Shown here: positions 3,388 through 53,315 of the stretch, piece by piece
How positions within the stretch are numbered: position 1 is the stretch's first letter
Layout: each line of letters opens with the position of its first letter
From: Verrucomicrobium spinosum
GTDB taxonomy: Bacteria; Verrucomicrobiota; Verrucomicrobiia; JADLBR01; JAIBCM01
NCBI GenBank assembly: GCA_020718645.1
Contig: DYRQ01000006.1
Span: 1 to 53,316, forward strand
Direction of reading: 5' to 3'
DNA length: 53,316 bases
Notes under the pieces: generated by a model
What the model was told of the DNA's origin: nothing
The model's input: the letters and a program-made list of their open reading frames with translations, nothing else
Database searches by the model: none
Translations under genes and position numbers: made by a program

Positions 3388-4119
3388 CTATTGTCCTGCA
3401 CCCAGCAAGGACGCCTTCACCCCGGTGGGCAGCTCCCCTTGGGTATTGGGGATTTTAATGCGCAGGCGCACGGTATTGCTTGCCGCGTCGGTCACAGGTG
3501 AAACGAACTCCACCACACCGCGAACCTCTGCGCCGACATCCCCCACAGAGACGCGCACCGGCTGATCTTTGGAGTATTGACGCGCCTCGGTCGGAGGTAG
3601 GAACAGCTGCACCAAGAGATTATTCAACTCCACGACAGTAAAGATGTAGGGCACCGCGGGAGTCATACTTTCCGAGAGTTTGCGTTTCACCTCCGTAACC
3701 ACCCCATCGCACGGACTGCGAATGGTGCGCAGTTCGATTTCAGCCTCGACTGCTGCGACTTTGTTGCGCTGCACCTCCAGCTCCATCCGCGCTTTGTCGT
3801 ATTCCTCGGGAGAGAGACGACCCGATTTTTTTAGCTCTTCAAATTTCTCAAAGCGGGTTGCAAAAAACTCCGCCTGCGCTTTGGCGATACCCAACTCCGC
3901 CTCGAACCGCCGACAATCTAGGCGAGCGAGCAATTGCCCCACCTGAACCCGATCCCCTTCTTTTACGGGCATTTCGCGCAGGATGCCAGTCTCAGAGAGA
4001 GAGAGCTTATAGGAGTTGTAAGGCTCCAAGTAGCCAAAAGAGACCGCGTGGTCGCTGGGATTGGCACCCGCAAAACTCAGCGCCAACAGCCAAAAAGCGA
4101 TGGGCGCAACTCGGATCAC
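3388..4119 (-). CDS. Efflux/secretion periplasmic adaptor (membrane fusion protein, HlyD/RND-MFP family)
   Basis: Lipoyl half-motifs GILREMPVKEGDRVQVGQLLARLD and IRSPCDGVV around a short helical hairpin; GVVEFVSPVTDAASNTVRLRIKIPN; signal peptide; overlaps the TolC stop by 4 nt. Confidence 0.9.
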   Translation of the reverse strand: MIRVAPIAFWLLALSFAGANPSDHAVSFGYLEPYNSYKLSLSETGILREMPVKEGDRVQVGQLLARLDCRRFEAELGIAKAQAEFFATRFEKFEELKKSGRLSPEEYDKARMELEVQRNKVAAVEAEIELRTIRSPCDGVVTEVKRKLSESMTPAVPYIFTVVELNNLLVQLFLPPTEARQYSKDQPVRVSVGDVGAEVRGVVEFVSPVTDAASNTVRLRIKIPNTQGELPTGVKASLLGAGQ

Positions 4120-5924
4120 TTGGCTAAACCGGCGTCAGCCTTGGTCTCTGATACCGGCTCTGCTGCGGAGGTAGGCGCCCCTGTCACTGGGCCGTTCACC
4201 TTCAAGACATTGACAGGAAGCCCGTCCTCGCCTTGCTGTTTCACTAGGCTGATATTTTCATAGGCCAGCAGATTGCCCTGAGCCCGCTCCAGCGCAACTT
4301 GGGCGATGGCATAGGTGGCTATGCTGCGGAGAAAATCTTCTTCGGCACGGGAGAGGCGATCTTGGGAATCGAGGAAGAAATCCAAGAAGCTCATGGTGGC
4401 ACCCTCGGCACCGGCCTGCACGGCACGGCGCTGGCGCAGATCTTCCAACTCCTCGATGGCAGATGCCATGACCTCGTATTTGGCCACAATATCACGCCAG
4501 GCAGTGCGCACCTCGCGGGCGGCAACTTTTACTTCGAGCAACACTGTCTCGACTGTCGTGCGGAACTGGGCGTATTGCTGGCGCAACTCGATGCGGCGGC
4601 GATCCAGACGGGCATCTGCAATATTATTTTCGAGCGGAATTTCAAAATTGAGCCCGACCAAGAATCCCGGTCCACCCGTGCGAACTTGGCGGTTCATGGC
4701 ACCACCGACATCATCGCCTTCTTTTAATCCAGCGAGGTAGGTTTCTATGATCAAGTTGAGCGTCGGCAAGTGCTCGTTCTTCTGCATTTTCTCGCGGATA
4801 GCAGCGGAACGGAGCTGCTTGATCGCCTGAGAAATTTCAGGGCGATGCTCTATGGCATGCAGGGCGCAAGCCTTCAGATCCACAGGCACCTCGTTCAGTG
4901 CCAAGGCATCAGCAGGGATCAGTTCCATGTTGGATGCCAAGTTAAAATCAGGGTCGTTGAGCAGGGACTTCACACGATCTTGCGAGTTGCGAATAGCTAT
5001 CTCGGAACGCACCAAGCTAGCCATGCGATCAGCGTAGGCGGAACGGGCGCGCAGCACTTGGGTGCGATTGGCGTCCACATCTTGCCGGGCGTCATACTCA
5101 CCGACAATCTTGGCGGTTTCTTGCACCAGACGCTTCTGCTGCACATGCAGGGAACGGGACATGTAGAGAGTCCAATACGAGCGGCAAATCTCCATGAGAT
5201 GCGACTCGATCTGGCGGAGCGCCTCGTGCTGAGCTATCTCCGAATCGAGCTTGGCGATATGGATAATGCTGCGGTTGTAATTGACGCCGGCACCTTTGAG
5301 CAGGGGCTGGACGACCGAGAGCTTGAGCTTGCTGGCCGCTTGTGGATTAGGGGTAAAAAACTCCGAATTATTCTGCGTGCGACTCATCTCCTGTGAGAGA
5401 GAGAACTCGGCACCGGTCACAGCGCGTTTGCGCAGACCGGCCTCGACCGACCACTGCTCCTGCTCGAACCGTCCGATGTTCCCGGTGGTCAGCGTGCTGC
5501 CGACGGGATCGTCTTGGGAATCAAATTTCGATTCAACAAAAGCGCGGGTGTCAAAGGCACCCTTGGCCTCTTGGATGCCCGTCTCGCGAATGAGCGGAAT
5601 ATCGGAGAATACTTTGATCTGCGTCGAGTGCTCGATTGCGGAGAGATAGAGACTTTCCGTCGGCATGGCTTTGGGCTCGGAATCAGCAAACATCTGCTGG
5701 GACACATTCACATGCCACCATGGCGAGAAATTGGCAGGCATTTTCTCAGGCACAGCGGTAGAAACCTGATATTCCAGAGTTGTCGCCTCTGCTTTGAAGC
5801 CACTCAAAATCGCTTCCAGTTCGGGATCAACATCCTTCTGGATCACGGGCTCGTAGCCAGAGCTGTTTGAGACTGCTCCCACGAGCAGCACCGCCAATAT
5901 CAATCGTGTAATTATCGTATTCAC
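4116..5924 (-). CDS. TolC-family outer membrane channel with N-terminal extension
   Basis: Signal peptide and two TolC-like repeats (EAKGAFDTRAF...LSVVQPLLKGAG; NEHLPTLNL...GLNFEIPLENNIA...VKVAAREV). Confidence 0.9.
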   Translation of the reverse strand: MNTIITRLILAVLLVGAVSNSSGYEPVIQKDVDPELEAILSGFKAEATTLEYQVSTAVPEKMPANFSPWWHVNVSQQMFADSEPKAMPTESLYLSAIEHSTQIKVFSDIPLIRETGIQEAKGAFDTRAFVESKFDSQDDPVGSTLTTGNIGRFEQEQWSVEAGLRKRAVTGAEFSLSQEMSRTQNNSEFFTPNPQAASKLKLSVVQPLLKGAGVNYNRSIIHIAKLDSEIAQHEALRQIESHLMEICRSYWTLYMSRSLHVQQKRLVQETAKIVGEYDARQDVDANRTQVLRARSAYADRMASLVRSEIAIRNSQDRVKSLLNDPDFNLASNMELIPADALALNEVPVDLKACALHAIEHRPEISQAIKQLRSAAIREKMQKNEHLPTLNLIIETYLAGLKEGDDVGGAMNRQVRTGGPGFLVGLNFEIPLENNIADARLDRRRIELRQQYAQFRTTVETVLLEVKVAAREVRTAWRDIVAKYEVMASAIEELEDLRQRRAVQAGAEGATMSFLDFFLDSQDRLSRAEEDFLRSIATYAIAQVALERAQGNLLAYENISLVKQQGEDGLPVNVLKVNGPVTGAPTSAAEPVSETKADAGLAK

Positions 5925-5949: not shown

Positions 5950-8900
5950 TCAATATCCCGAAGCCGTGGCTTGGGCAGCTAAAAATTCTGATTCGTGGGC
6001 GCTGAAATCCATACGCACAGGGCGATTCATATAATCCATGAGGATCATCACCGTGCCCACGGAGCGTTTACCAAAAATATTGGCGACATCTACACCTTCG
6101 TAGAAGAATTCACCAGCCTGCAAAGCGGGCGCAAAGAAGGCGCGAATGTTGTAATTACCATCGCCAGATGAGTTGTAGCTCGGATTGGTGGTGCTGATGG
6201 ATACCGAACGGGGATAGTCCGTAATCACAGCATTCGGGAAAGTCGCCAGCCAGTTACCACCCGAGTCAGCCACAACAGTCTGAGTGCCTATCACATCACC
6301 TTTAGCGCCAACCATGACCAACACCAATGTGGAACCAGGATCCGATTTACCACTGTAGATAGGAGCCAGCGGCAGCAGCGGTTGAGCATAGGGAAGGATA
6401 CGCTCTTCAGGACGGAAGATTGGGCGTTGGCGGGGTTCTAGATTGCCGGTCTTATCCAGAGCTTCATCCGGCTCTACACGGAAAGTGCTTGTGACCAGAT
6501 GGGATATTGCCGTGGTAGGGGTAGTGGTAGGCGTCGGGGTGGGTGTAGGCGTCGGGGTTGGCGGGGTGACAGCCGGGGGTATCTTATAACCGAAATCCAC
6601 ATCCGTGCGATTCTGACCCGCAGTCAGGGTAACAGCTGTAGCTGCGTTAGCCGAAACCAAACCATCGAGGTCATAAGTTTGGGTGGTGTAAGTTCCGAGC
6701 GTAGAAGTATCCACGCGGACGATATAAGTTCCCGCTACGAGACCACCGATGGTGTAGCTGCCTGCGCCGTTGGTAATAGCCGTGCTTTCGCCCACATCGT
6801 AGATGCCATCGTTGTCAGCGTCCAAGTAAACTCGGACACCGGCAATACCGGCCTCGCCACCATCTTGCACGCCGTCACCGTCCACATCATGCCAGACAAA
6901 ATCCCCAAGGCTTGCTGCTACGGCTGGGGTGGTCAGGCGGACGGTATCTTGGGCGAAATCCGTGGTGGCGTTATGCACCTCGTTAGCGGTGACAGCGCCG
7001 TAGTCCCGGTCATTGGTGCCATCTGCGGCATAGCGGGAGTCAGCGTCCGGCGTGCCCGAGAGTGTGTGCGCTTCATCGCCGGCCAAATCATCCCAGTAGA
7101 TTTTCGCTGTATTCTCGAGGGTAGCATTGAGCCCGACCCAGGCCGAAACCGTGCCTGTGTAAGTGATCGTGATCGTGCTGCCCACAGCGAGCTGGTCGAG
7201 GGAAAGAACGATGTTGTTGCCCGCAGAGGTATTCGAATTCACCGTGGCACCAGTCACATTGATCGAGGCAACATTCAGCGTGATGTCCGCAGGCAAACTA
7301 TCACGCACAGCGATATCGTAAGCTGTCTGCGTGCTGGCAGCGCGGTGATCAATCGTCAGCGTATAAGTCACCACTTGGCCAGGACTGACCACATCGTCGG
7401 CATCATTCTCCGCCTTGGTAATCTGCAAGATGGGTTCCACCACGGTTACAGGGACATTGGGTGTGGTGGCATCGGGCGTAGCCCCGCCTGGCACATTGAC
7501 AGAGGCCTGATTGTTGAGAACAGTTTGGCTACCACTGGCACCGACATTACCCGCCACATCGAGGACAAGCGCCTGCAACGAGATGGTAAAGCTGTTGTTG
7601 GTGGTAACATTATCTGCGACCACAGAAACAGTGCTAAAGGTCCAGATCACATCATCGCCACTGCCGCTGCCACCCGTCTGATTGAAGTTCACGCCACTGG
7701 TGGCGATGGTGCCATTAAAGGAGGCTGTATTGAACGAAGCACTGCCCGTTACATAGGACAATCCGGCTGGCAGGAGATCCGTTACGGTCACCGTGCCCAC
7801 TGGTCCTTCCGGTAGAGTCACAGTGATAGTATAAGTCACCGTCTCGCCAATAGCGACATTCGAGCCTGTGGTTCCAGCTTGGTCAGTGGCGGAAAGAACC
7901 TTAGTGATTGTCGGAGTGCTTACAGTCGTGCTGACAACAGTAGAGGTATCAGCATAATCGTTCAGCGCGCCACCCTCGCCATCTGCACCTGTGCGCTCAT
8001 CAGCATCGCTGCCGTCCACAGCACCGCTGTTCAAGCTGGTCCATGTCGCTGTAGCTGAGTTGGAAATCGTCTGGTTTGGGACAACATCCGTATCGAGATT
8101 ACCAGAAACAGTGTAAGTCTGCGAGGCACCAGCAGCCAAGGTTCCGATGGTCCAAGTATAGACGAGGCTATTACCATCAGAACCCGTGCTACCCGGAGTG
8201 CCAGTGGCGGAAGCCGAGCGGATGTCATTATTGATAGCGTCAGTCATGGACACATCAAACGCATCATAAGAACCTGTGTTCTGCACGACAATCTGGTAGG
8301 CGATAGCATCACCAGCATCCGATGGTGTAGTGGTAATCGTCTTGGTCACTGTAATGACAGGCTCACGGACGGTCACGATGGGGTCGTTGCCGGGCGTGCC
8401 ATCGGGTATAGCGACCGTGCCGCCCGTGTCGGGATTGGTGTAGGCGACTGAAGACTGATTTTCCAGCGTGGTGGAGGCTTGGTTGCCGACCACATTGGTC
8501 GTGATAGCTTGGACACGGATGATAAATGAGTTATCGCCACTGGCGCCATTGGCAGCAAGAGTGATGTTACCGAAAGCGAGTTGCATATCCACGCCGTCGT
8601 TACCCAAGGTGCCAGCACCGAAAGCCGTGACCGTAGGAGCCCCTAAAGCAGCACCAAAATCCGTAGTCATTTGTCCACCGCTAGCCGCGGCAGTGGTGAT
8701 GAGCTGATAACCCAAGCCGCCGTTGTAAGTGGTGTCCAGACGCAGACCCGAGGGAACAAGATCACGCACGGTCAGACCATTAGTCGTGCCTTCAGCCAAA
8801 GTGACTAAAATATCGTAGATGACCGACTCACCGATCACGACATTGGCAAGAGTCGTATGGGAGGCGCTCGTGTCATCATTCGTGATCGAGCCACCCTGGA

Positions 8901-11900
8901 ATCGCTTGTCCACCGAGGGGGCACCCACTTGCACAGCAAACTGCGCCCCAACTTCGTAGTTATTCAGGCCAGTGTTATAAACTGGGAAAGTGTTGTCAGT
9001 GGCAGTCACACTAGAACCGTCACGGGCTCCATCAGCAGCTCCTGAAGCTCCTGGCGTGGAGGAGCCAGTTGTATTCGCACCACCCACGGTTCCCGTGCCA
9101 CCCGGCAGTGAGGCATAAGAAACCAGGACATTATTAGAGAGAATATCCCCAGAGATAGCGGCGTCGCCTAGCTTCGCTGTCACGGTCACTGTGATATTTT
9201 TCACAGCACCACCGATGGCAGCTACATCCGGGAGTGAATCAAAGGTCAAAGTGAATGAACCACCAGCACCGGCCGTTACAGTGCGCGCTGTTTCAGACAC
9301 GCCAACAGGAATATTGGTGCCAGCAGCCGAGGCCGTAACACTGACCAGCTCAATACCGGCAGGCAGTGTGTCGGCCACTGTGATGTTATAAGCTGGCATC
9401 TGCACGATGCGACGCCATTGCATATTAGTGCCTGCGACATCAGGACCGAGCACATTGGTGATGCTTGAATACATTCCGAAACTCTGTCCGGATAGAGTGG
9501 TTCCCTGCTGGATATAAACTTGGTAGCCCAGAGGTATCTCAGACGAGTTATCGAAATCCGACACACGACGCAGGCTCGCAGTGCCTGCCACAGCAGTGAC
9601 TTCGTAGATGCCATTCTGGGTTTGAGTGCTTTGATTTTTTATCAGCACGCGATCCCCAACCACGAGCGCCACGCTGTCCAGTGTGGTGGCGATACCTGTG
9701 ATGGTAGCCTGTGATCCTGCTGCGCCAGTGAAACCAGCCAAGTTAGCCGTAGTGGCCACTTTGACGGCAGTGGAGTTCTGCACGAGCGCGAAAGCAAGAG
9801 CTGTAGTGTTGAGCGTGACAGAGGCAGACTCTTGCAGGTAAACACGCCCTGAGTTCGTCGTGCCACCGCTCACGGCAAAGCGAGAATTATCAGTCACCTC
9901 GGCGTTTGCATCATAGTCAGGAGCACGATCGAGTATCACTGTATCCGTCTGTGCATCTACATAAAACACACGGTAAACACCGTTCTGAGTCCCTGTAGCC
10001 TGATCTTTGACCAGCACCCGGTCACCCGCGTTCAGAGAAACACCATCAATAGTGCGAGCAACCCCGGTAAACTGGCCTGTGCCACCCACTCCACTGGCAG
10101 CGTTGTAAGTAGCTCCTGTCAATGCTGCCGTGGTGGCAACCTGAACGGACGGAATACCTGTAATTTCAAAAACCGGCTGGTTGGAGAAAGTAATGGTATA
10201 AGTGAAAGTATCACCTCCGTCAGCAGGCAGAGCCGAGGTCACCTGCGTCTTCAGGTTAGTGATCTGTGGTTCGACTACATTGACAGACACACTGCCGACA
10301 CCAGACGCCAGCGCATCGTTGGCGGAGTTAGCTTTGATATCCACCGTATTTGTGAGAGCAACTCCCGCTTGGTTAGCTGCGACATTTTCTACCAATGCGT
10401 TAAATTCGATGATGATATATTCTTTGTCAGCATCATTGTCTGAATTAACTATATCGCCGAGTTTGAACTGAGGGTCTGTGCCGCTGACATACGAATCAGT
10501 GTTGACAGTCAGGCTTGTGCTGGATCCGATGTTAACATTACCGAGCACAACTGTCACCGCGACAGAGGTCGGGTCATCCACTGTAGCAGAGGCGTTGGGA
10601 TCTGCCTGCCATGGTCCATTGGCCAAAGCTAGAGCCAAGGTCGAACCAGTTGGCTCCGACGAAGTAATACCGTTGTTAGTATCCGAGACAAAGGCGATTT
10701 TAGTGGTTCCGTCGTTGATAAAACGCATGCCGGTTGGCAGGTTGTCGTCCACGATCAAATTGGTCGTTGTGCCTTCGGGGATTTCGATCTGGATGCGATA
10801 GCGGACTATTTCACCGATAGCCACAGTGTTCGTCGTGCCTGCTAACCCAGTGCCAGGCTCGGAGGTGGCAACAATGGTCTTGGTCACAGCAAAGTTCGCG
10901 GTATTGATATCAGCTACTTCAGTCTTGTTGACCTGCAAGTGATCGTATCCACCTTCTTTGCCTGCGTATTTTGTCAGAGAGGCCGTGTTCCGAATATAGG
11001 CATCGGTCGGTGTCTGCGCTGTGAAATAGTTAGGAGAAACATTGGAGGAGAGCGTCAACTCGTAGCTGACAATGACAAAATTGAAACCATCAGTCCGCTC
11101 ACTTGCATCCTGATTCAAACCACGATTCAAACCGCCCTGTTTGCTCTCGCCGCCATCCGCATCAGCGTAGTTATCTACCAGTTCAATCGAAAAGGTGTTG
11201 GCGCCATCATTCCATGTCAGATTGTAACCCACGCCATGCACGAGCGCCGTGCGATCGCCCCGTTGCACGACGAGGTTGGTCGCCGTGATAAACTGGTTGG
11301 CCGTCAGCGCACCGGGATCCACAAACTGAGCTAGGATAGTATCTTCAAAAGTAACATCGTAAGCATCGGAACGACCTGTATTGCCCACAATGAGGGCATA
11401 GCGGACTTTATCTCCGGCATCAGGAAGTGTTCCAGTAGTCAAGTTGCTGTTACTGAAAGTTGTGGCATCAGCCACGGCATCCATCACACCCGCAGTGACA
11501 CCTGTGCCAGCTCCGATAGCACCAAAGGTCAGCCCACCCAGAGTCGCTGATGCGATGACCCCAGCTTTTTCACTGGCAACGACACCCTTGTAAATTTCCA
11601 CATCAGGCTCATTGAGCACGATCTGGATGATCGAGTCTGCCACCTGTTTTGATCCGGGCGACTGAGTATTTTCTTCCTCTGAACGGACTTGGTTGGTCAG
11701 GTAAAGACCATCTGCAAACGGATCGTCATCCACCGTCACGGTGAACATGAAATCAGCCTTCAACTGGGTATTAGCACCGTAGTCGTAGTCTAGCCCCGGA
11801 TAGAAACGGAGACTGTTGTTCGTAGCATCCACTGACGCAACAGCCGGAGTGTGTCCACTGGCCGCTGTAAAAGTATCTGTAGAACCAAGAATGACATGTC

Positions 11901-14232
11901 CAGTTGCTGGGGCACTGCCAGCCCAAGCGCCGTCATACACCCACTCTCCGAGCCCACCGGCGGCACCGTCAGTGTTGGGATCGTTGGCCTTGTAAACCGG
12001 CATCGGCAGGTAGTCTGTAAAAGCGAGGTTTTCTACATCGCCAGTAGGAATAGTATATTCAATTCGATAAGTGACCGTATCCCCTGGGCTCACTTGCACC
12101 TGACCACTAACGATAGGAAGTGTCGTGCTCCCGTTGACTGCGTAGATGGTCTTGGTTAGCACACCTGATGTGATGGTCACATCGGCACCACTATCATCAA
12201 TGGGCGTGTTCGTGGAGGCTCCTCCGTCACTATCCGCGAGTGTGTCGTTGTCCAACACTCGTCCGGTGATCTCGACATCGTTTGTTAAAACATCACGGGG
12301 GTTCACTGGAGACTCGCCACTGGGGTAGTCCTCTTCAAAGTTGTTTTGGATGACGAGACGGAACTTCAAAGTGCCAGTAGTCGCACCGAAAGGCAAAGCC
12401 CCAGGAGCCACAAGTGGGTTATTGTAATCCGTAGGATCCGCTGTGCCCTTCACGCCGCCACCGAGCAACATGCCGTCCACGCCACCTAGACCATCGCCAT
12501 CCCAATTCAGGCGAATCAATTCGTTGGAAATATTGAACGAGAGCTGGCGACCGCCCTCCAGCGTCACATCGTTATTGTTGTCCGTTCCATCGCCGAGCAA
12601 AGTCTGGGACCAGTTTGTGGCAGCAAAAGCTCCCGTCCCGCTGGCTCCAGTGAACGAGCTGTTGGTGATCGAACTACCATGAGAAGTGATGTTCAGAATC
12701 GGGGCGAAAGTTGTGTCGAGACGCAAACCATCGGAATACAGATCCGTTATGACAAGGTTGTCGAAGGCAAAGTAGTCCGATACCTGAAAATTCAAAGTAT
12801 ATTCCAGCGTGTTACCCACATTGTAAGTGCTGTTGCCAGTAGTGACATTTGACACTGATTTCTGGATGGCGATAGACTGCGCTTGCAGGGTGTGCTCGTG
12901 GTCGCCGTCAAGCACAGGATTTGCCGGATTCAGCGGGTTGCCATCCACTGTAGCTTGGTCGGCAGTGCGAATGTCCGAATCGCGGGTGTCTAGCGGATCC
13001 CAAACCCCGTGTCCGTAAGCCTCGTTGAAGTGGTTTTCAAAAGCACCTGTCGTGGCATTGAGCACGGCGTTGCCATCACCATCAATGCGAGGAACGAAAA
13101 ATGAAAACTCTATGTAGGCATCCACTGAAGCAGTCCCACCCAACACGGGGTTGTCAAACAAGATTTCCAATGTGCCACCGGGACTGGTGGTTAACACGGT
13201 ATGGTTGACCGTAGTAGAGTAGGCTGCAGAACTACCCGTGAAGGCGACAAACTGCATCGCATCAGGAATACCGTCTCCAGCGAGCCCAGGCATCACATCG
13301 GCCAGAGTCAAACTCGACAGCGTCTGGCCATTGGCAATGTCCACATTAATGCGGTAGCGGCGCTCAAAATTTGGGCCGGTGGCCGTCTCGTCTTCAGGAC
13401 CAATATACTGCTTGGTCACCGTCATGATGGAAGGTTTGGCATGATCAGAACTTGCCGCCCCAAAAATGGTTTGTTCGACAGGGAGCGACCCGCCTCCATC
13501 GGGATCAACCCCCGGATTATCCAAAGGATCATTTCCGTAACGGAACCCACCGCGAGCTGTGACTTCTAGCTCAGTCACTGTCGCGTTGGTCGAGTCGTAG
13601 AGATCCGCCTGATTGCTCATGCTGGCATCAATAGTGATAGTCGCAGCGGGCTGATCGGCAGCAAAACTACCAAACGGCAGTTCGATCACGATGATCTGAT
13701 CCCCGTTCTGGTAACGGCCACCTAACCAAGCATCAGTCGTCTTGATGTAAATACCATTTCCGGAGGAATCCTTAGCGTAGGGATGGAGAACACCATCGGT
13801 GGCATCAAGGGAGTCACCGTCATTGTTGCTGTCGTCGTCGAGAGTCAATATCTGGTAATTGACATTGGACCCAAGGTATTTGACCTTGCCAGAGGCTCCG
13901 ACCGTGATGCCATCCGCCACAGAGGTCCAAGTGTTGGTCTGAGAGTTGTAAACACCATCGGCACCTGTGCGATCAATCGCTAGGTCAATGAACGGGCCGT
14001 AGCCCTCTTGGGTGGCATGGGTGTTGTCAAAGTTGACTTGAATCTGAAAATCCTCACCTATTTTAGGATCTGGTGTCGTGACAGAAACCGTAGGCGTAGC
14101 ACTGTAGAGAATACGATTTTCGAGCGTTTCCAAAACCAGTTGTGACTTTTTCGCTCCGCGAGCACGCGCCGACCCTGACGCCAGTTCCCCGCCAGCCCAG
14201 CTCTTCAACTTGTCTGCCAATTTTGCAATCAT
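5950..14232 (-). CDS. Giant secreted adhesin-like protein, 2760 aa: LEPRxLL motif, about 10 isopeptide-type/DUF11-like Ig modules, SdrD B-like domain, PT linker, C-terminal Ig-like domain
   Basis: LETLENRILYS near the N terminus; repeated K...GExVxYxIxV...DxLPxG...NxA modules; GDFVWHDVDGDGVQDGGEAGI (SdrD B-like); PIYSGKSDPGS...VVADSGGNW (Ig-like); directly upstream of TolC and the adaptor. Confidence 0.88.
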   Translation of the reverse strand: MIAKLADKLKSWAGGELASGSARARGAKKSQLVLETLENRILYSATPTVSVTTPDPKIGEDFQIQVNFDNTHATQEGYGPFIDLAIDRTGADGVYNSQTNTWTSVADGITVGASGKVKYLGSNVNYQILTLDDDSNNDGDSLDATDGVLHPYAKDSSGNGIYIKTTDAWLGGRYQNGDQIIVIELPFGSFAADQPAATITIDASMSNQADLYDSTNATVTELEVTARGGFRYGNDPLDNPGVDPDGGGSLPVEQTIFGAASSDHAKPSIMTVTKQYIGPEDETATGPNFERRYRINVDIANGQTLSSLTLADVMPGLAGDGIPDAMQFVAFTGSSAAYSTTVNHTVLTTSPGGTLEILFDNPVLGGTASVDAYIEFSFFVPRIDGDGNAVLNATTGAFENHFNEAYGHGVWDPLDTRDSDIRTADQATVDGNPLNPANPVLDGDHEHTLQAQSIAIQKSVSNVTTGNSTYNVGNTLEYTLNFQVSDYFAFDNLVITDLYSDGLRLDTTFAPILNITSHGSSITNSSFTGASGTGAFAATNWSQTLLGDGTDNNNDVTLEGGRQLSFNISNELIRLNWDGDGLGGVDGMLLGGGVKGTADPTDYNNPLVAPGALPFGATTGTLKFRLVIQNNFEEDYPSGESPVNPRDVLTNDVEITGRVLDNDTLADSDGGASTNTPIDDSGADVTITSGVLTKTIYAVNGSTTLPIVSGQVQVSPGDTVTYRIEYTIPTGDVENLAFTDYLPMPVYKANDPNTDGAAGGLGEWVYDGAWAGSAPATGHVILGSTDTFTAASGHTPAVASVDATNNSLRFYPGLDYDYGANTQLKADFMFTVTVDDDPFADGLYLTNQVRSEEENTQSPGSKQVADSIIQIVLNEPDVEIYKGVVASEKAGVIASATLGGLTFGAIGAGTGVTAGVMDAVADATTFSNSNLTTGTLPDAGDKVRYALIVGNTGRSDAYDVTFEDTILAQFVDPGALTANQFITATNLVVQRGDRTALVHGVGYNLTWNDGANTFSIELVDNYADADGGESKQGGLNRGLNQDASERTDGFNFVIVSYELTLSSNVSPNYFTAQTPTDAYIRNTASLTKYAGKEGGYDHLQVNKTEVADINTANFAVTKTIVATSEPGTGLAGTTNTVAIGEIVRYRIQIEIPEGTTTNLIVDDNLPTGMRFINDGTTKIAFVSDTNNGITSSEPTGSTLALALANGPWQADPNASATVDDPTSVAVTVVLGNVNIGSSTSLTVNTDSYVSGTDPQFKLGDIVNSDNDADKEYIIIEFNALVENVAANQAGVALTNTVDIKANSANDALASGVGSVSVNVVEPQITNLKTQVTSALPADGGDTFTYTITFSNQPVFEITGIPSVQVATTAALTGATYNAASGVGGTGQFTGVARTIDGVSLNAGDRVLVKDQATGTQNGVYRVFYVDAQTDTVILDRAPDYDANAEVTDNSRFAVSGGTTNSGRVYLQESASVTLNTTALAFALVQNSTAVKVATTANLAGFTGAAGSQATITGIATTLDSVALVVGDRVLIKNQSTQTQNGIYEVTAVAGTASLRRVSDFDNSSEIPLGYQVYIQQGTTLSGQSFGMYSSITNVLGPDVAGTNMQWRRIVQMPAYNITVADTLPAGIELVSVTASAAGTNIPVGVSETARTVTAGAGGSFTLTFDSLPDVAAIGGAVKNITVTVTAKLGDAAISGDILSNNVLVSYASLPGGTGTVGGANTTGSSTPGASGAADGARDGSSVTATDNTFPVYNTGLNNYEVGAQFAVQVGAPSVDKRFQGGSITNDDTSASHTTLANVVIGESVIYDILVTLAEGTTNGLTVRDLVPSGLRLDTTYNGGLGYQLITTAAASGGQMTTDFGAALGAPTVTAFGAGTLGNDGVDMQLAFGNITLAANGASGDNSFIIRVQAITTNVVGNQASTTLENQSSVAYTNPDTGGTVAIPDGTPGNDPIVTVREPVITVTKTITTTPSDAGDAIAYQIVVQNTGSYDAFDVSMTDAINNDIRSASATGTPGSTGSDGNSLVYTWTIGTLAAGASQTYTVSGNLDTDVVPNQTISNSATATWTSLNSGAVDGSDADERTGADGEGGALNDYADTSTVVSTTVSTPTITKVLSATDQAGTTGSNVAIGETVTYTITVTLPEGPVGTVTVTDLLPAGLSYVTGSASFNTASFNGTIATSGVNFNQTGGSGSGDDVIWTFSTVSVVADNVTTNNSFTISLQALVLDVAGNVGASGSQTVLNNQASVNVPGGATPDATTPNVPVTVVEPILQITKAENDADDVVSPGQVVTYTLTIDHRAASTQTAYDIAVRDSLPADITLNVASINVTGATVNSNTSAGNNIVLSLDQLAVGSTITITYTGTVSAWVGLNATLENTAKIYWDDLAGDEAHTLSGTPDADSRYAADGTNDRDYGAVTANEVHNATTDFAQDTVRLTTPAVAASLGDFVWHDVDGDGVQDGGEAGIAGVRVYLDADNDGIYDVGESTAITNGAGSYTIGGLVAGTYIVRVDTSTLGTYTTQTYDLDGLVSANAATAVTLTAGQNRTDVDFGYKIPPAVTPPTPTPTPTPTPTTTPTTAISHLVTSTFRVEPDEALDKTGNLEPRQRPIFRPEERILPYAQPLLPLAPIYSGKSDPGSTLVLVMVGAKGDVIGTQTVVADSGGNWLATFPNAVITDYPRSVSISTTNPSYNSSGDGNYNIRAFFAPALQAGEFFYEGVDVANIFGKRSVGTVMILMDYMNRPVRMDFSAHESEFLAAQATASGY
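6513..6575 (-). repeat. Pro/Thr low-complexity linker inside the adhesin
   Basis: Encodes PPAVTPPTPTPTPTPTPTTTPTT; the 14-mer gtaggcgtcggggt occurs at 6527-6540 and 6545-6558. Confidence 0.85.
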
Positions 14233-14403: not shown

Positions 14404-16983
14404 TTATCGCTGCTGCAGGGTCAGGTAGGTCAAGTCAAGGTAGTTGGCCTGTAGGCGCCAGCCTCGCACGGCTTCTCCCCGATGAAACACCGCTCCTCCC
14501 GAGCTTTCCTCGCCTTTGTGCATTTCATCAAAATAGACGGTGTCCTTGCCGCGAGTGAAGCGGACGCTGAAGTCTGTCTGCCTGCCATGGTTCCACCAAA
14601 AGACATGCTCAGTCCCGTCCGCAAGACGACGCGACGACACGCCACACCTTGCAAAGACTTCGACCAGACACCGGATCTGTTCCGTAGAAAATTCCGGGAT
14701 AAACTGGCCAATCGAGCGGATATCGTCCGAGAATCGTCGCCCGGTCTCAGCCATCTGCCGTGGACCGTGACTGCTCATGCGAAAGGTTTTTACCAAAGCC
14801 AAAAAATCCTCTTCGGTATAATTCGTAAGAAGACCCACACCACCCTCGAACAGCACCTCTATTTTCTCGCCATCTCGGAGAGCGATGGGAGCGCTCACCC
14901 AATCGCCTCCCTCTCTCTGCATGGGGAAGGTGTCCCCCACACCACGGATCGAGAGTATCGCTTGCTTCGCCACAAAACCGCGAAGGCGAAGGCGAGCCTG
15001 CTGCGACCAACGACGGTTGCCACCCAACTGGGAGAAGGTAACGAAGAGCCGTTCCCCCTGCCACTCGGTGGTGCAGGACACCTCAGCGTAGTCCCCATTT
15101 TGATAGGCTGCTGACTCCCCGTCATCATCATAGAACTTCGATGTATGGGAACCGGGGAAAACGAGCCATTCAGACCCGGCACTCTCCATAGGAAAAGCAG
15201 CGCCACCCACTGCGAATAGCGGGATTTGATCGGGGGCACAATGCACGGCACTCCAACCTGACTGCTCAATTTTTCTTCCGGTCTGGAAATCAAACCACTC
15301 GCCCTCTGGGAACCAGACATCGCGACGGGATAACCCTGTCGAGGCGTCAGCCGGAGCCACCACTGGCGCCGCTAGCAGATCGGGGCCAAAGGAGTATTGG
15401 TCAGGGCAGAGATAGGCATCCTCGATTTCAGGGTGGCGGTAGTAGAGTGGCAGACAGAGAGGTAGCCCCCCACAGGAATTGTCACGCACCGCCGTGTAGA
15501 TGTAGGGCATCAGCGCACGACGCAAGTGCAAGGCACCCAGAGCCGCAGAACGATAAGGCTCAGGTTTATGCCACGGCTTATAATCCAGCGTGGGGTCGCC
15601 ACAGTTGTGGAATCGCATGACAGGGCTCAGGCAGCCAAACTGCACCCAGCGCACGAACAGATCGTGATTGTTCGGATCACCCTTCTGGAACCCCCCGATG
15701 TCGTGGCTCCAACAGCCGTAGCCCACATTGGCTGACTGCGATGTCAGGCGCACCTGATAATCCAAAGAGGCCCACGATGATACAGCATCCCCAGAAAACC
15801 CAACAGGGTAACGGTGCGACCCGGCTCCACCCCAGCGAGACAAGATCAGCGGACGACGAGAACCATCGCGGGCGATGTCCAGAGCGTGAAGGTGGTTCAG
15901 ATACCAGAGAGGATCGAGCCCGGCCAATTGCGTGGTTTTTTCCTGCTGCCAATCTATCCACCAAAAGTCCACCCCCTGCTTCTCGAGGGGATGGTGCAGA
16001 AAACGAAAATAGGCCTCGATGAATTTCGGGTTGGCTATATCGAATTTTACAGTCTCTTTCGACGCGGGATCCACGCCCATGAAAGAAGCTATCTCAGCAT
16101 AGGCAGACTCATGTTCAGCCACGCCCGAGGAGGGATGCAAGTTCAGGCAGGCATGTGCGCCCTTGGCATGGATGCGCTGAAAAAAGCCTTCGGGGTCAGG
16201 AAAAAATGCCGGGCTCCATGTGTAGCCAGTCCAACCTGGCATGTGCCAATCCATATCCACAACACAGACAGAAAGCGGCAGCCCATGCGTCTCAAACTCA
16301 TCTACGATACCCTCCAGATCCGACTGACGGTATTTCTCCCAGCGGCTCCACCAGAGCCCGAGAACCCACTTGGCGACCAAGGGTGGAGCTCCAGCAATTT
16401 TATAATAATCCGCGAGAGCCTCTGAAAAGCGGTGGCCATAACCAAAGAAATAAAAATCTACCCCTCGCTGCTGTCTCGGACGCAACCAACCTTCCTCGCT
16501 GAAAACCAGTGAAGTGCTGTCGTCCACCACAGCCCAGCCCGATCGTGAAACAATACCCTCTGACACCGCCACGGGACGGCACTCGCTGTAGTGCATCTCT
16601 CCATCACAGTTGTCGAGCGTCCGCACGCTGCCTTTTAAATTGGCTGTATCCGCCTGTCCATAGTGCCAAGTAAATCCCGTAGCTTTCAGGGTGACTGCCA
16701 GACTTTCCCTCGAGAAAAAACCTTGGGAGGAACACTCGAGCACCAAAGCTTCTGTCTCGATCCTGACCCCACCATCATGAAAAACCTGTCCACGGAACTC
16801 CACGGCACCGAGGTCGCGATGCCAAAAATGTTGTGAAGAGGCATCTTCAAAACTCCCCTCTGCCTGCCACTGACAACGGATCAAGCTGGGCGTGATCACC
16901 GTGAAACGCAGCGAACCACTGCTGACAATATTGGAGGGATTTGCTTGAGATTTTCCCGGAACAACGAAATGGCTCAAATTCAT
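14404..16983 (-). CDS. Glycoside hydrolase family 31 (alpha-glucosidase/alpha-xylosidase type)
   Basis: VVDMDWH, WTGYTWSPAFFPDP, nucleophile motif GVDFWWIDWQQ, RYPVGFSGD, WSHDIGGF, RWVQFGCLSPVMRFH. ATG start taken at 16983. Confidence 0.93.
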   Translation of the reverse strand: MNLSHFVVPGKSQANPSNIVSSGSLRFTVITPSLIRCQWQAEGSFEDASSQHFWHRDLGAVEFRGQVFHDGGVRIETEALVLECSSQGFFSRESLAVTLKATGFTWHYGQADTANLKGSVRTLDNCDGEMHYSECRPVAVSEGIVSRSGWAVVDDSTSLVFSEEGWLRPRQQRGVDFYFFGYGHRFSEALADYYKIAGAPPLVAKWVLGLWWSRWEKYRQSDLEGIVDEFETHGLPLSVCVVDMDWHMPGWTGYTWSPAFFPDPEGFFQRIHAKGAHACLNLHPSSGVAEHESAYAEIASFMGVDPASKETVKFDIANPKFIEAYFRFLHHPLEKQGVDFWWIDWQQEKTTQLAGLDPLWYLNHLHALDIARDGSRRPLILSRWGGAGSHRYPVGFSGDAVSSWASLDYQVRLTSQSANVGYGCWSHDIGGFQKGDPNNHDLFVRWVQFGCLSPVMRFHNCGDPTLDYKPWHKPEPYRSAALGALHLRRALMPYIYTAVRDNSCGGLPLCLPLYYRHPEIEDAYLCPDQYSFGPDLLAAPVVAPADASTGLSRRDVWFPEGEWFDFQTGRKIEQSGWSAVHCAPDQIPLFAVGGAAFPMESAGSEWLVFPGSHTSKFYDDDGESAAYQNGDYAEVSCTTEWQGERLFVTFSQLGGNRRWSQQARLRLRGFVAKQAILSIRGVGDTFPMQREGGDWVSAPIALRDGEKIEVLFEGGVGLLTNYTEEDFLALVKTFRMSSHGPRQMAETGRRFSDDIRSIGQFIPEFSTEQIRCLVEVFARCGVSSRRLADGTEHVFWWNHGRQTDFSVRFTRGKDTVYFDEMHKGEESSGGAVFHRGEAVRGWRLQANYLDLTYLTLQQR

Positions 16984-17043
16984 TTGCAAAACACTCTACC
17001 TTTCCGCATTGAAAAACACGATAAAAAAATACCGCTGACAGAG

Positions 17044-53243: not shown

Positions 53244-53315
53244 GCCGGCTTAGCTCAGTGGTAGAGCAACGGTTTTGTAAACCGTCGGTCATCGGTTCGA
53301 ATCCGATAGCCGGCT
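53244..53315 (+). tRNA. tRNA-Thr (anticodon UGU)
   Basis: Cloverleaf: acceptor GCCGGCT/AGCCGGC, D arm GCTC-AGTGGTA-GAGC, anticodon stem ACGGT-TTTGTAA-ACCGT, T arm ATCGG-TTCGAAT-CCGAT. The base after the discriminator is T, so CCA is not encoded. Confidence 0.97.

Follow-up and report, generated by a model that had tools for sequence, protein, structure and literature searches.

Introduction

The ligand-binding domains of RTX adhesins have been recognised by the way in which they emerge from 'split' domains (PMC12077191, PMC10865825), and DUF11, a CnaA-like stalk domain with an Asp-catalysed Lys-Asn isopeptide, has been renamed CLIPPER (PMC12617251; crystal structure 9IFR). The present analysis concerns a 53,316-nucleotide stretch of DNA from Verrucomicrobium spinosum (GenBank assembly GCA_020718645.1, contig DYRQ01000006.1, positions 1–53,316 of the forward strand; referred to as the window) and within it a minus-strand gene for a giant fibrillar adhesin, one stalk module of which is interrupted by a tandem pair of domains with homologues in phage tail fibres and virion proteins. 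Domains held in common by virions and cells are familiar from the T4 Hoc-type Ig-like or carbohydrate-binding domains, which are shared by virions and bacterial surface proteins and are thought to provide weak polyvalent binding to surface polymers. No description of domains nested in CLIPPER modules was found in the searchable literature (queries on DUF11 with tail fibre, and on domain insertion in fibrillar adhesins with phage).

The split module of the host adhesin

The 2760-residue protein is a giant fibrillar adhesin of the CLIPPER type. Over its whole length it contains four DUF11 domains, one SdrD_B domain and one bMG10 domain (Pfam), four TIGR04226 (isopeptide-D2) domains, five TIGR01451 repeats and an N-terminal LEPR-XLL motif (NCBIfam) and a Pro/Thr-rich linker, and the same Pfam and NCBIfam scans detected no RTX or HemolysinCabind family. 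The gene and the parts of the split module are listed below (HMM, hidden Markov model; iE, independent E-value), followed by the sequence landmarks.

5950..14232 (minus strand): giant fibrillar adhesin gene, 2760 aa, from the open-reading-frame list and translation
10180..10281 (minus strand): split module, N-terminal part, aa 1318–1351, with strand A 'VEPQITNLKTQV' and strand B 'TFTYTITFSN'
10156..10179 (minus strand): linker QPVFEITG between strand B and copy 1, aa 1352–1359, outside the domain-HMM envelope
9772..10155 (minus strand): copy 1 of the inserted domain, aa 1360–1487, domain HMM iE 2.6e-38
9397..9771 (minus strand): copy 2 of the inserted domain, aa 1488–1612, domain HMM iE 5.3e-34
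8878..9396 (minus strand): split module, C-terminal part, aa 1613–1785, opening with strand C 'AYNITVADTLP' and closing with 'LNNYEVGAQFAVQVG'
Landmark YTITFSN: aa 1345, nt 10200
Landmark 'VQVATTA' of copy 1: aa 1363, nt 10146
Landmark 'VKVATTA' of copy 2: aa 1490, nt 9765, 127 aa after that of copy 1
Landmark PAYNITVADTLPAG: aa 1613, nt 9396
Unbroken reference modules: YQIVVQNTGSYDAFDVSMTD at aa 1979 and YALIVGNTGRSDAYDVTFED at aa 945

One DUF11/CLIPPER stalk module is broken after YTITFSN and picks up again at PAYNITVADTLP, the insert between its two parts comprising 261 residues (1352–1612) and holding two copies of about 125 residues each. An earlier note on this DNA, made from the sequence alone, had described the split; the starts that it gave for both copies are exact, and YTITFSN and the two unbroken reference modules are found as it quoted them. 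It had further proposed that the insert interrupts a loop of one Ig-like module, and this is borne out by the flanks themselves: with the insert deleted they reach 30.6 bits against Pfam DUF11 (PF01345), for which the cut-off is 24.6, residues 19–116 of the joined sequence aligning with positions 12–106 of the 114-position profile and thus spanning the joint at residues 34/35. The joined flanks also align through the joint to intact paralogous modules (E about 5e-9) and, more weakly, to the sequence of the CLIPPER crystal structure 9IFR, again across the joint. The B–C loop of 9IFR has seven residues in this alignment, and loops of about 5–7 residues are found both there and in the intact modules of the window, whereas the split module has 261 residues at this position.

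The motif 'VEPQI[NT]N[LV]' in the N-terminal part is conserved in homologues, and a candidate isopeptide triad can be assigned to the Lys of 'NLKTQV', the Asp of 'VADTLP' and the Asn of 'LNNYEV', of which the Asp is invariant across homologues and aligns with the 'NDTL' Asp of 9IFR. At the sequence level, the flanks constitute an intact single host module.

An AlphaFold2 model of the composite of split module and inserted pair has a mean predicted local distance difference test (pLDDT) score of 79.9 and a predicted template-modelling score (pTM) of 0.63, with both inserted domains above pLDDT 90. It places β-strands on both sides of the insert (TFTYTITFS and AYNITVADT, pLDDT about 84–90), model residues 8–14 and 25–33 being the strands of the N-terminal flank. 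Comparison of this model with 9IFR using Foldseek gave a probability of 0.98, with a template-modelling (TM) score of only 0.48. The host module probably still folds as one β-sandwich, and the anatomy of the nested arrangement is regarded as near-certain.

The inserted domain and its phage relatives

The two copies are 42% identical over 104 residues (BLASTP E = 1e-19), in agreement with the earlier description of the insert as a tandem pair of one domain repeated at a distance of 127 residues. No similarity between them is detectable at the DNA level, suggesting that the duplication is old. The residues conserved in the family alignment (A-T-T, the D of IDG, D-R-x-L, an invariant Q, N-G-x-Y, an R and the G of EGT) are all kept in both copies. 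Two other segments of the adhesin, aa 102–180 and 1185–1259 (window ~13693–13929 and ~10456–10680), gave sub-threshold matches to one third of the domain HMM (iE 0.03 and 0.09, respectively), which are probably due to chance or to a generic small-barrel resemblance.

Neither Pfam-A nor NCBIfam has a model for the inserted domain. A hit of the insert to the proteasomal-ATPase OB domain (26.7 bits over 28 residues) was rejected as a generic small-barrel resemblance and not membership of that family. Searches against phage protein families were more productive, with about ten PHROG profiles matching the pair and each copy at E-values from 1e-8 down to 1.3e-33 (best values 2.6e-19 for copy 1 and 1.7e-17 for copy 2). 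These are annotated as tail fibre (phrog_11518), head decoration (phrog_2647) and virion structural (phrog_24595 and phrog_2824) proteins, several being of unknown function, and PHROG 30390 is also among the phage families that carry the domain. A tblastn search of 50,697 phage genomes found the domain in 95 records, in which the annotated proteins are tail fibres or tail proteins; the records include Methylophilales phage Melnitz, Pelagibacter phage Mosig, Synechococcus S-CBS4 and many P2-like Ralstonia phages. Its place in Ralstonia phage RSY1 is approximately residues 160–280 of ORF25, a gene that follows the baseplate genes at the position of P2 gpH.

A profile built from 30 members was used to search PDB sequences and a library of representative sequences. 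In the former it matched the tail fibre of Legionella phage LME-1 (9EFK, orf22; E = 2.6e-29 over residues 261–385) and a 'capsid decoration protein' (9NX3; E = 2.7e-15 over residues 32–126). The 18 chains of 9EFK fit a hexamer of trimers in the LME-1 tail fibre (PMC12407071); a literature search found no paper on 9NX3, the mycobacteriophage Douge paper not being its source. Among 1.84 billion representatives the profile matches 46,054 clusters at 50% identity (36,878 at E <= 1e-10), and one back-translated motif located at least 583 confirmed loci in IMG/VR. Most of the top matches to the insert are proteins of 200–460 residues, many of them with the tail-collar families PF12571 and PF21882, and one protein with two copies adjoins a Mu-type portal gene on a 226-kb contig. 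In nine multi-copy representatives no Pfam family covers the domain, and CLIPPER modules are present in only four of the 149 best multi-copy representatives. Three proteins (P0253, P0259 and P0264) are made up of 6–10 head-to-tail copies separated by linkers of 3–7 residues, with no other Pfam domain.

These matches show that the inserted domain and a domain found in the tail fibres and virion proteins of phages are homologous. It belongs to a very large and uncurated family, known best from the tail fibres and capsid decoration proteins of phages and from other proteins of the virion surface. The link to tail-fibre and virion proteins that the earlier note had put forward from recall is thus supported by PHROG profiles, by 9EFK and 9NX3, by viral structure models (BFVD, described below), by IMG/VR and by phage genomes; the homologues of the insert are not confined to cells. 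The adhesin is nevertheless not a tail fibre. A Pfam scan found neither PF12571 (DUF3751) nor PF21882 in it, and it has one domain in common with tail fibres but lacks collar and tip domains as well as a virion context.

The single-domain AlphaFold2 model of copy 1, calculated from a 30-sequence alignment, has a pLDDT of 96.6 and a pTM of 0.90 and is all-β with about eight strands, a confident prediction of an autonomous fold. A Foldseek search of BFVD with this model produced 88 matches at E <= 1e-3 (best TM scores 0.82–0.87, root-mean-square deviation 2–3 Å), nearly all to tail-fibre-like proteins of Caudovirales. The corresponding search of the PDB gave nothing significant, the best match having an E-value of 0.86 and the matches being PilZ and phage baseplate barrels. 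That 9EFK was missed by Foldseek would be explained by the distal fibre density of LME-1, which was not modelled (PMC12407071). As far as these models indicate, the fold lies outside the characterised structural families and is essentially uncharacterised. A fold search with the three-domain composite model returned only weak Ig-like and integrin matches (best E 5.6e-4, all with TMq, the query-based TM score, below 0.2); it was uninformative on the insert, and the single-domain model was used instead.

Recurrence in other adhesins and empty sites

A search with the whole adhesin identified an orthologue (P0121) that is 65% identical to it and contains the same tandem pair, whereas looking for an exact match to the adhesin in the assembly collection gave none. 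By the domain HMM, 24 of the 120 best adhesin homologues carry one to four copies. There are several distinct insertion sites, three of which have recognisable DUF11-module flanks.

Site A (the site of the window): '...VEPQINNLxK...FTYTLRFANG-[two copies]-AFDVTVYDQLP...', occupied by a tandem pair in all intact proteins observed
Site B: one copy between 'FAVRRGDGTLLTGDVV' and 'DYYAVYNPLTG', the left flank also being written 'RGDGTLLTGxVV'; for example in P0135 and P0210
Site C: one copy after 'DFSATGFY'
Further site: a single copy near the N-terminus of adhesin homologues
10942..11427 (minus strand): paralogous module of the window adhesin, homologous to the host of site B, aa ~936–1097; site empty in the window

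A scan of one genome per GTDB species yielded 20 related loci, in 17 of which the split module and the pair are covered. They come from metagenome-assembled genomes (MAGs) of Verrucomicrobiota, Roseiflexus, Caldilineales, Anaerolineales, Victivallales and Ca. Solibacter, so that adhesins of Verrucomicrobiota, Chloroflexota, Victivallales and Acidobacteriota (at least four phyla) share the tandem pair at this loop. Unoccupied counterparts of the site also exist. In a Gemmatales MAG the positional homologue, which follows the same upstream 'KLGD..N.D.DA..EY.IIEFNA' domain, has an unbroken loop, as does a related module in a Planctomycetota MAG ('TYTVTFSNTGTATAFDAILTDTLP'). Within the window itself, residues 900–1110 of the adhesin align with P0135 in two BLASTP segments that bracket the P0135 insert. 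The insert is variably present among homologous modules; the comparison among relatives that the earlier note had recommended finds it lacking in Gemmatales/Planctomycetota and present in other phyla.

Age of the nesting and direction of transfer

The nearest relatives of copy 1 are the first copies of other adhesins (64% identity in the orthologue and about 46–52% in the next best), and those of copy 2 are the second copies (about 49%). The four best matches classed as 'other' in this comparison are to proteins of 1806–4653 residues, at least two of which (P0265 and P0269) have CLIPPER modules, and the phage-like matches in a search with the insert alone reach at most about 50% identity in partial alignments. 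The insert and the remainder of the gene have practically the same fractional guanine-plus-cytosine content (0.535 and 0.534, respectively), and the codon-usage distance of the insert ranks 43rd of 76 windows.

Since each copy groups with its counterpart in other adhesins, the duplication appears to predate the divergence of the lineages that carry it. The occurrence of the same module and pair in at least four phyla, the copy-wise grouping, the host-like composition and the lack of nearby phage genes together indicate that the nesting is ancient, and we infer that it arose once, long ago, and has since passed between adhesins by inheritance or exchange. A recent capture from a phage is largely ruled out. 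The discrete capture in this particular adhesin that the earlier note had envisaged finds no support, as stated, in the same distribution, grouping, base composition and codon usage, and absence of phage genes. The data are compatible with transfer in either direction, from phage to cell or from cell to phage.

Proposed function and alternative explanations

The reading favoured here, with a probability of roughly 0.55 for the statement as a whole, is that an ancient nested pair of domains is displayed laterally on a split CLIPPER module and binds a ligand. A CLIPPER stalk module split in its B–C loop hosts two tandem autonomous all-β domains, both of which would project sideways from the stalk, and the covalently clamped sandwich would be a plausible platform for so large a loop insertion. 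The projecting pair, probably already duplicated before the carrying lineages diverged, would then form a ligand-binding side branch, probably specific for surface polymers or glycans, that adds specificity or avidity. The functional component is given about even odds.

Evidence on function comes from the comparison with P0121, to which the N-terminal flank is 85% identical, the C-terminal flank 77%, copy 1 64% and copy 2 43%. The displayed domains, above all copy 2, diverge much faster than the scaffold; synonymous sites have reached saturation at these distances. A conserved scaffold bearing domains that are intact and yet fast-diverging is what would be expected of an exposed specificity module, and this pattern, in combination with the presence of the domain on tail fibres and capsid decoration proteins, favours a laterally displayed binding pair. 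Of the two roles suggested in the earlier note, that of a specificity module is therefore plausible, given the fast divergence of the copies and the RTX split-domain precedent (PMC12077191); that of a phage decoy has nothing in its favour.

Several points weigh against a laterally displayed binding pair. The composite model has a pTM of 0.63, and only secondary structure, pLDDT and sequence indicate that strand B contacts strand C and that the pair points outwards. Relaxed constraint, and not changing specificity, could explain why the insert diverges faster. No solved structure of known function resembles the domain (Foldseek against the PDB, best E 0.86), and we know of no ligand for any member of the family. 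The split-domain analogy is drawn from another family, as the adhesin has no RTX repeats. In phage fibres the domain is often located mid-shaft and not at the receptor-binding tip, which makes a structural role possible.

Such a role could take the form of a non-binding structural knob that makes the fibre stiffer, acts as a spacer or shields it, the domain perhaps also serving as a shaft bead in phage fibres and arrays. This is the main alternative and is considered somewhat unlikely. It is in keeping with the many family members that are tandem arrays of 5–10 copies with linkers of 3–7 residues, a stalk-bead pattern, with the location of the domain in P2-like fibres between the N-terminal attachment region and the C-terminal part, and with the absence of a match to a known ligand-binding fold. 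However, a stalk bead is normally placed in series, and nesting in a loop adds no length to the stalk; the nested copies also evolve much faster than their scaffold, and the occurrence of the domain on capsid decoration proteins as well as fibres makes exposure, and not fibre building, the common theme.

Alternatively, the domain could be a self-association surface between adhesins or cells, active in aggregation or in the biofilm matrix and reused from the bundling of trimeric fibres. Phage proteins that carry it act as trimers, as in the LME-1 fibre with its 18 chains in the tail (PMC12407071), and its strongly conserved polar residues (D, R, Q, N and Y) could form an interface. The domain nevertheless models confidently as a monomer and is nested, both paired and single, in adhesins that are presumably monomeric, and self-association is judged quite improbable.

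A recently captured tail-fibre fragment or prophage remnant, acting as a phage decoy or receptor-binding mimic, would be consistent with the abundance of the domain in phages. It is very improbable in view of the housekeeping neighbours and the absence of flanking phage genes, the host-like composition and codon usage of the insert, the closer relationship to adhesin copies (49–64%) than to phage-like sequences (at most about 50%, partial) and the identical architecture across four phyla; moreover, a decoy would have to mimic the host receptor and not the phage fibre. The probability that the split is an artefact of assembly or annotation, a chimeric contig of adhesin and phage sequence, is negligible: although the window is metagenome-derived and the only runs containing the locus are soil and biofilm metagenomes, one unbroken open reading frame passes through both junctions, two independent runs contain 96% of the words sampled from nt 9300–10300, and the same junctions recur in the orthologue (65% identity) and at 17 loci belonging to independent MAGs.

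The ligand-binding reading can be taken a step further, by supposing that the domain is a cell-surface (glycan or envelope-polymer) recognition module common to phages and to the giant adhesins of Verrucomicrobiota, Chloroflexota and Acidobacteriota. This extension is rather unlikely. If it were true, free-living bacteria would attach to microbes or polysaccharide matrices with the host-finding device of phages, copy 2 tuning the specificity, and the more than 46,000 sequence clusters would represent a major unnamed family of binding domains.

Genomic neighbourhood and export

The neighbours of the adhesin gene are housekeeping in character, encoding RNase PH, GH31, PheS, PriA and TolC/HlyD-like proteins, and no phage genes are adjacent to it. 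The PheS protein is 70% identical to proteins of Verrucomicrobiae MAGs, in accordance with an origin in Verrucomicrobiota. Two of the neighbours are potentially relevant to export.

4116–5924 (minus strand): TolC-like outer-membrane gene downstream of the adhesin, 602 aa, Pfam OEP
3388–4119 (minus strand): HlyD-like membrane-fusion gene, unusually short at 243 aa, Pfam HlyD_3 and HlyD_D23

The TolC-like and HlyD-like proteins may be export partners of the adhesin. No ABC transporter was found among the neighbouring open reading frames scanned, a set that left out a small minus-strand frame at 1033–1665. The gene order behind the orthologue P0121 is similar, its gene being followed by an unannotated gene of 687 aa and then by a gene of 238 aa with a weak membrane-fusion (BSH_RND) match. 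At the C-terminus of the adhesin, following the Pro/Thr-rich linker, the last ~190 residues (aa ~2560–2760; window 5950–6700, minus strand) match no Pfam or NCBIfam family and may be an anchoring or secretion domain.

The GH31 glycoside hydrolase gene (14404–16989, minus strand) lies directly upstream of the adhesin gene on the same strand; a functional tie between its polysaccharide substrate and adhesion is speculative. The sole Rfam/ARAGORN match in the 53 kb is a tRNA-Thr gene (TGT; 53244–53315, plus strand) at the end of the window.

Significance

No new mechanism is shown here, and the function of the pair is inferred. The locus does expose a very large domain family of phages and adhesins that has neither a Pfam/NCBIfam model nor a functionally interpreted structure. 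The nested, monomeric adhesin copies suggest that the domain folds and works alone, which would make them an easy target for expression and ligand screening. The presence of the same domain in several loops, together with homologues in which the site is empty, provides a clean natural example of domain nesting.

Comparison with known systems

Comparison with the phage proteins (RSY1 ORF25, 9EFK and 9NX3) shows a common motif (ATT...IDGV...GDRVLVKDQ...QNGIY...R..D...EGT), and the domains agree in length and predicted fold. In those proteins, however, the domain stands in series in a trimeric fibre or on a capsid decoration protein, often after a DUF3751 collar and before the receptor-binding tip, whereas in the window a loop of a chromosomal adhesin encloses it. 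The T4 Hoc-type domains offer a looser parallel, as small β-domains that are common to virion and cell surfaces and present in many copies; the inserted domain differs from them in having no Ig-like or carbohydrate-binding-module match.

The host module resembles the CLIPPER domain of 9IFR in that its joined flanks score above the Pfam threshold and align through the joint, in its context within a tandem fibrillar stalk, and in the placement of the candidate Lys, Asp and Asn at the expected positions in strand A, strand C and the last strand.

A close precedent for the architecture is provided by the RTX split-domain adhesins (Vibrio cholerae FrhA and those of Aeromonas), in which, as is proposed here by analogy, a stalk β-sandwich is broken in a loop and autonomous domains emerge sideways. 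Both are giant fibrillar surface proteins of Gram-negative bacteria, and TolC-like and HlyD-like genes adjoin the adhesin of the window. The window adhesin differs in having a CLIPPER/DUF11 host module of the isopeptide type in place of a BIg extender, in having no RTX nonapeptide repeats, an N-terminus of the LEPR-XLL type and no ABC transporter seen, and in carrying a guest domain of another, uncharacterised fold with a putative ligand role. Read in this way, the locus would extend the 'split-domain' rule from RTX adhesins to the CLIPPER/isopeptide adhesins of poorly studied phyla, and would offer a way to find their business end.

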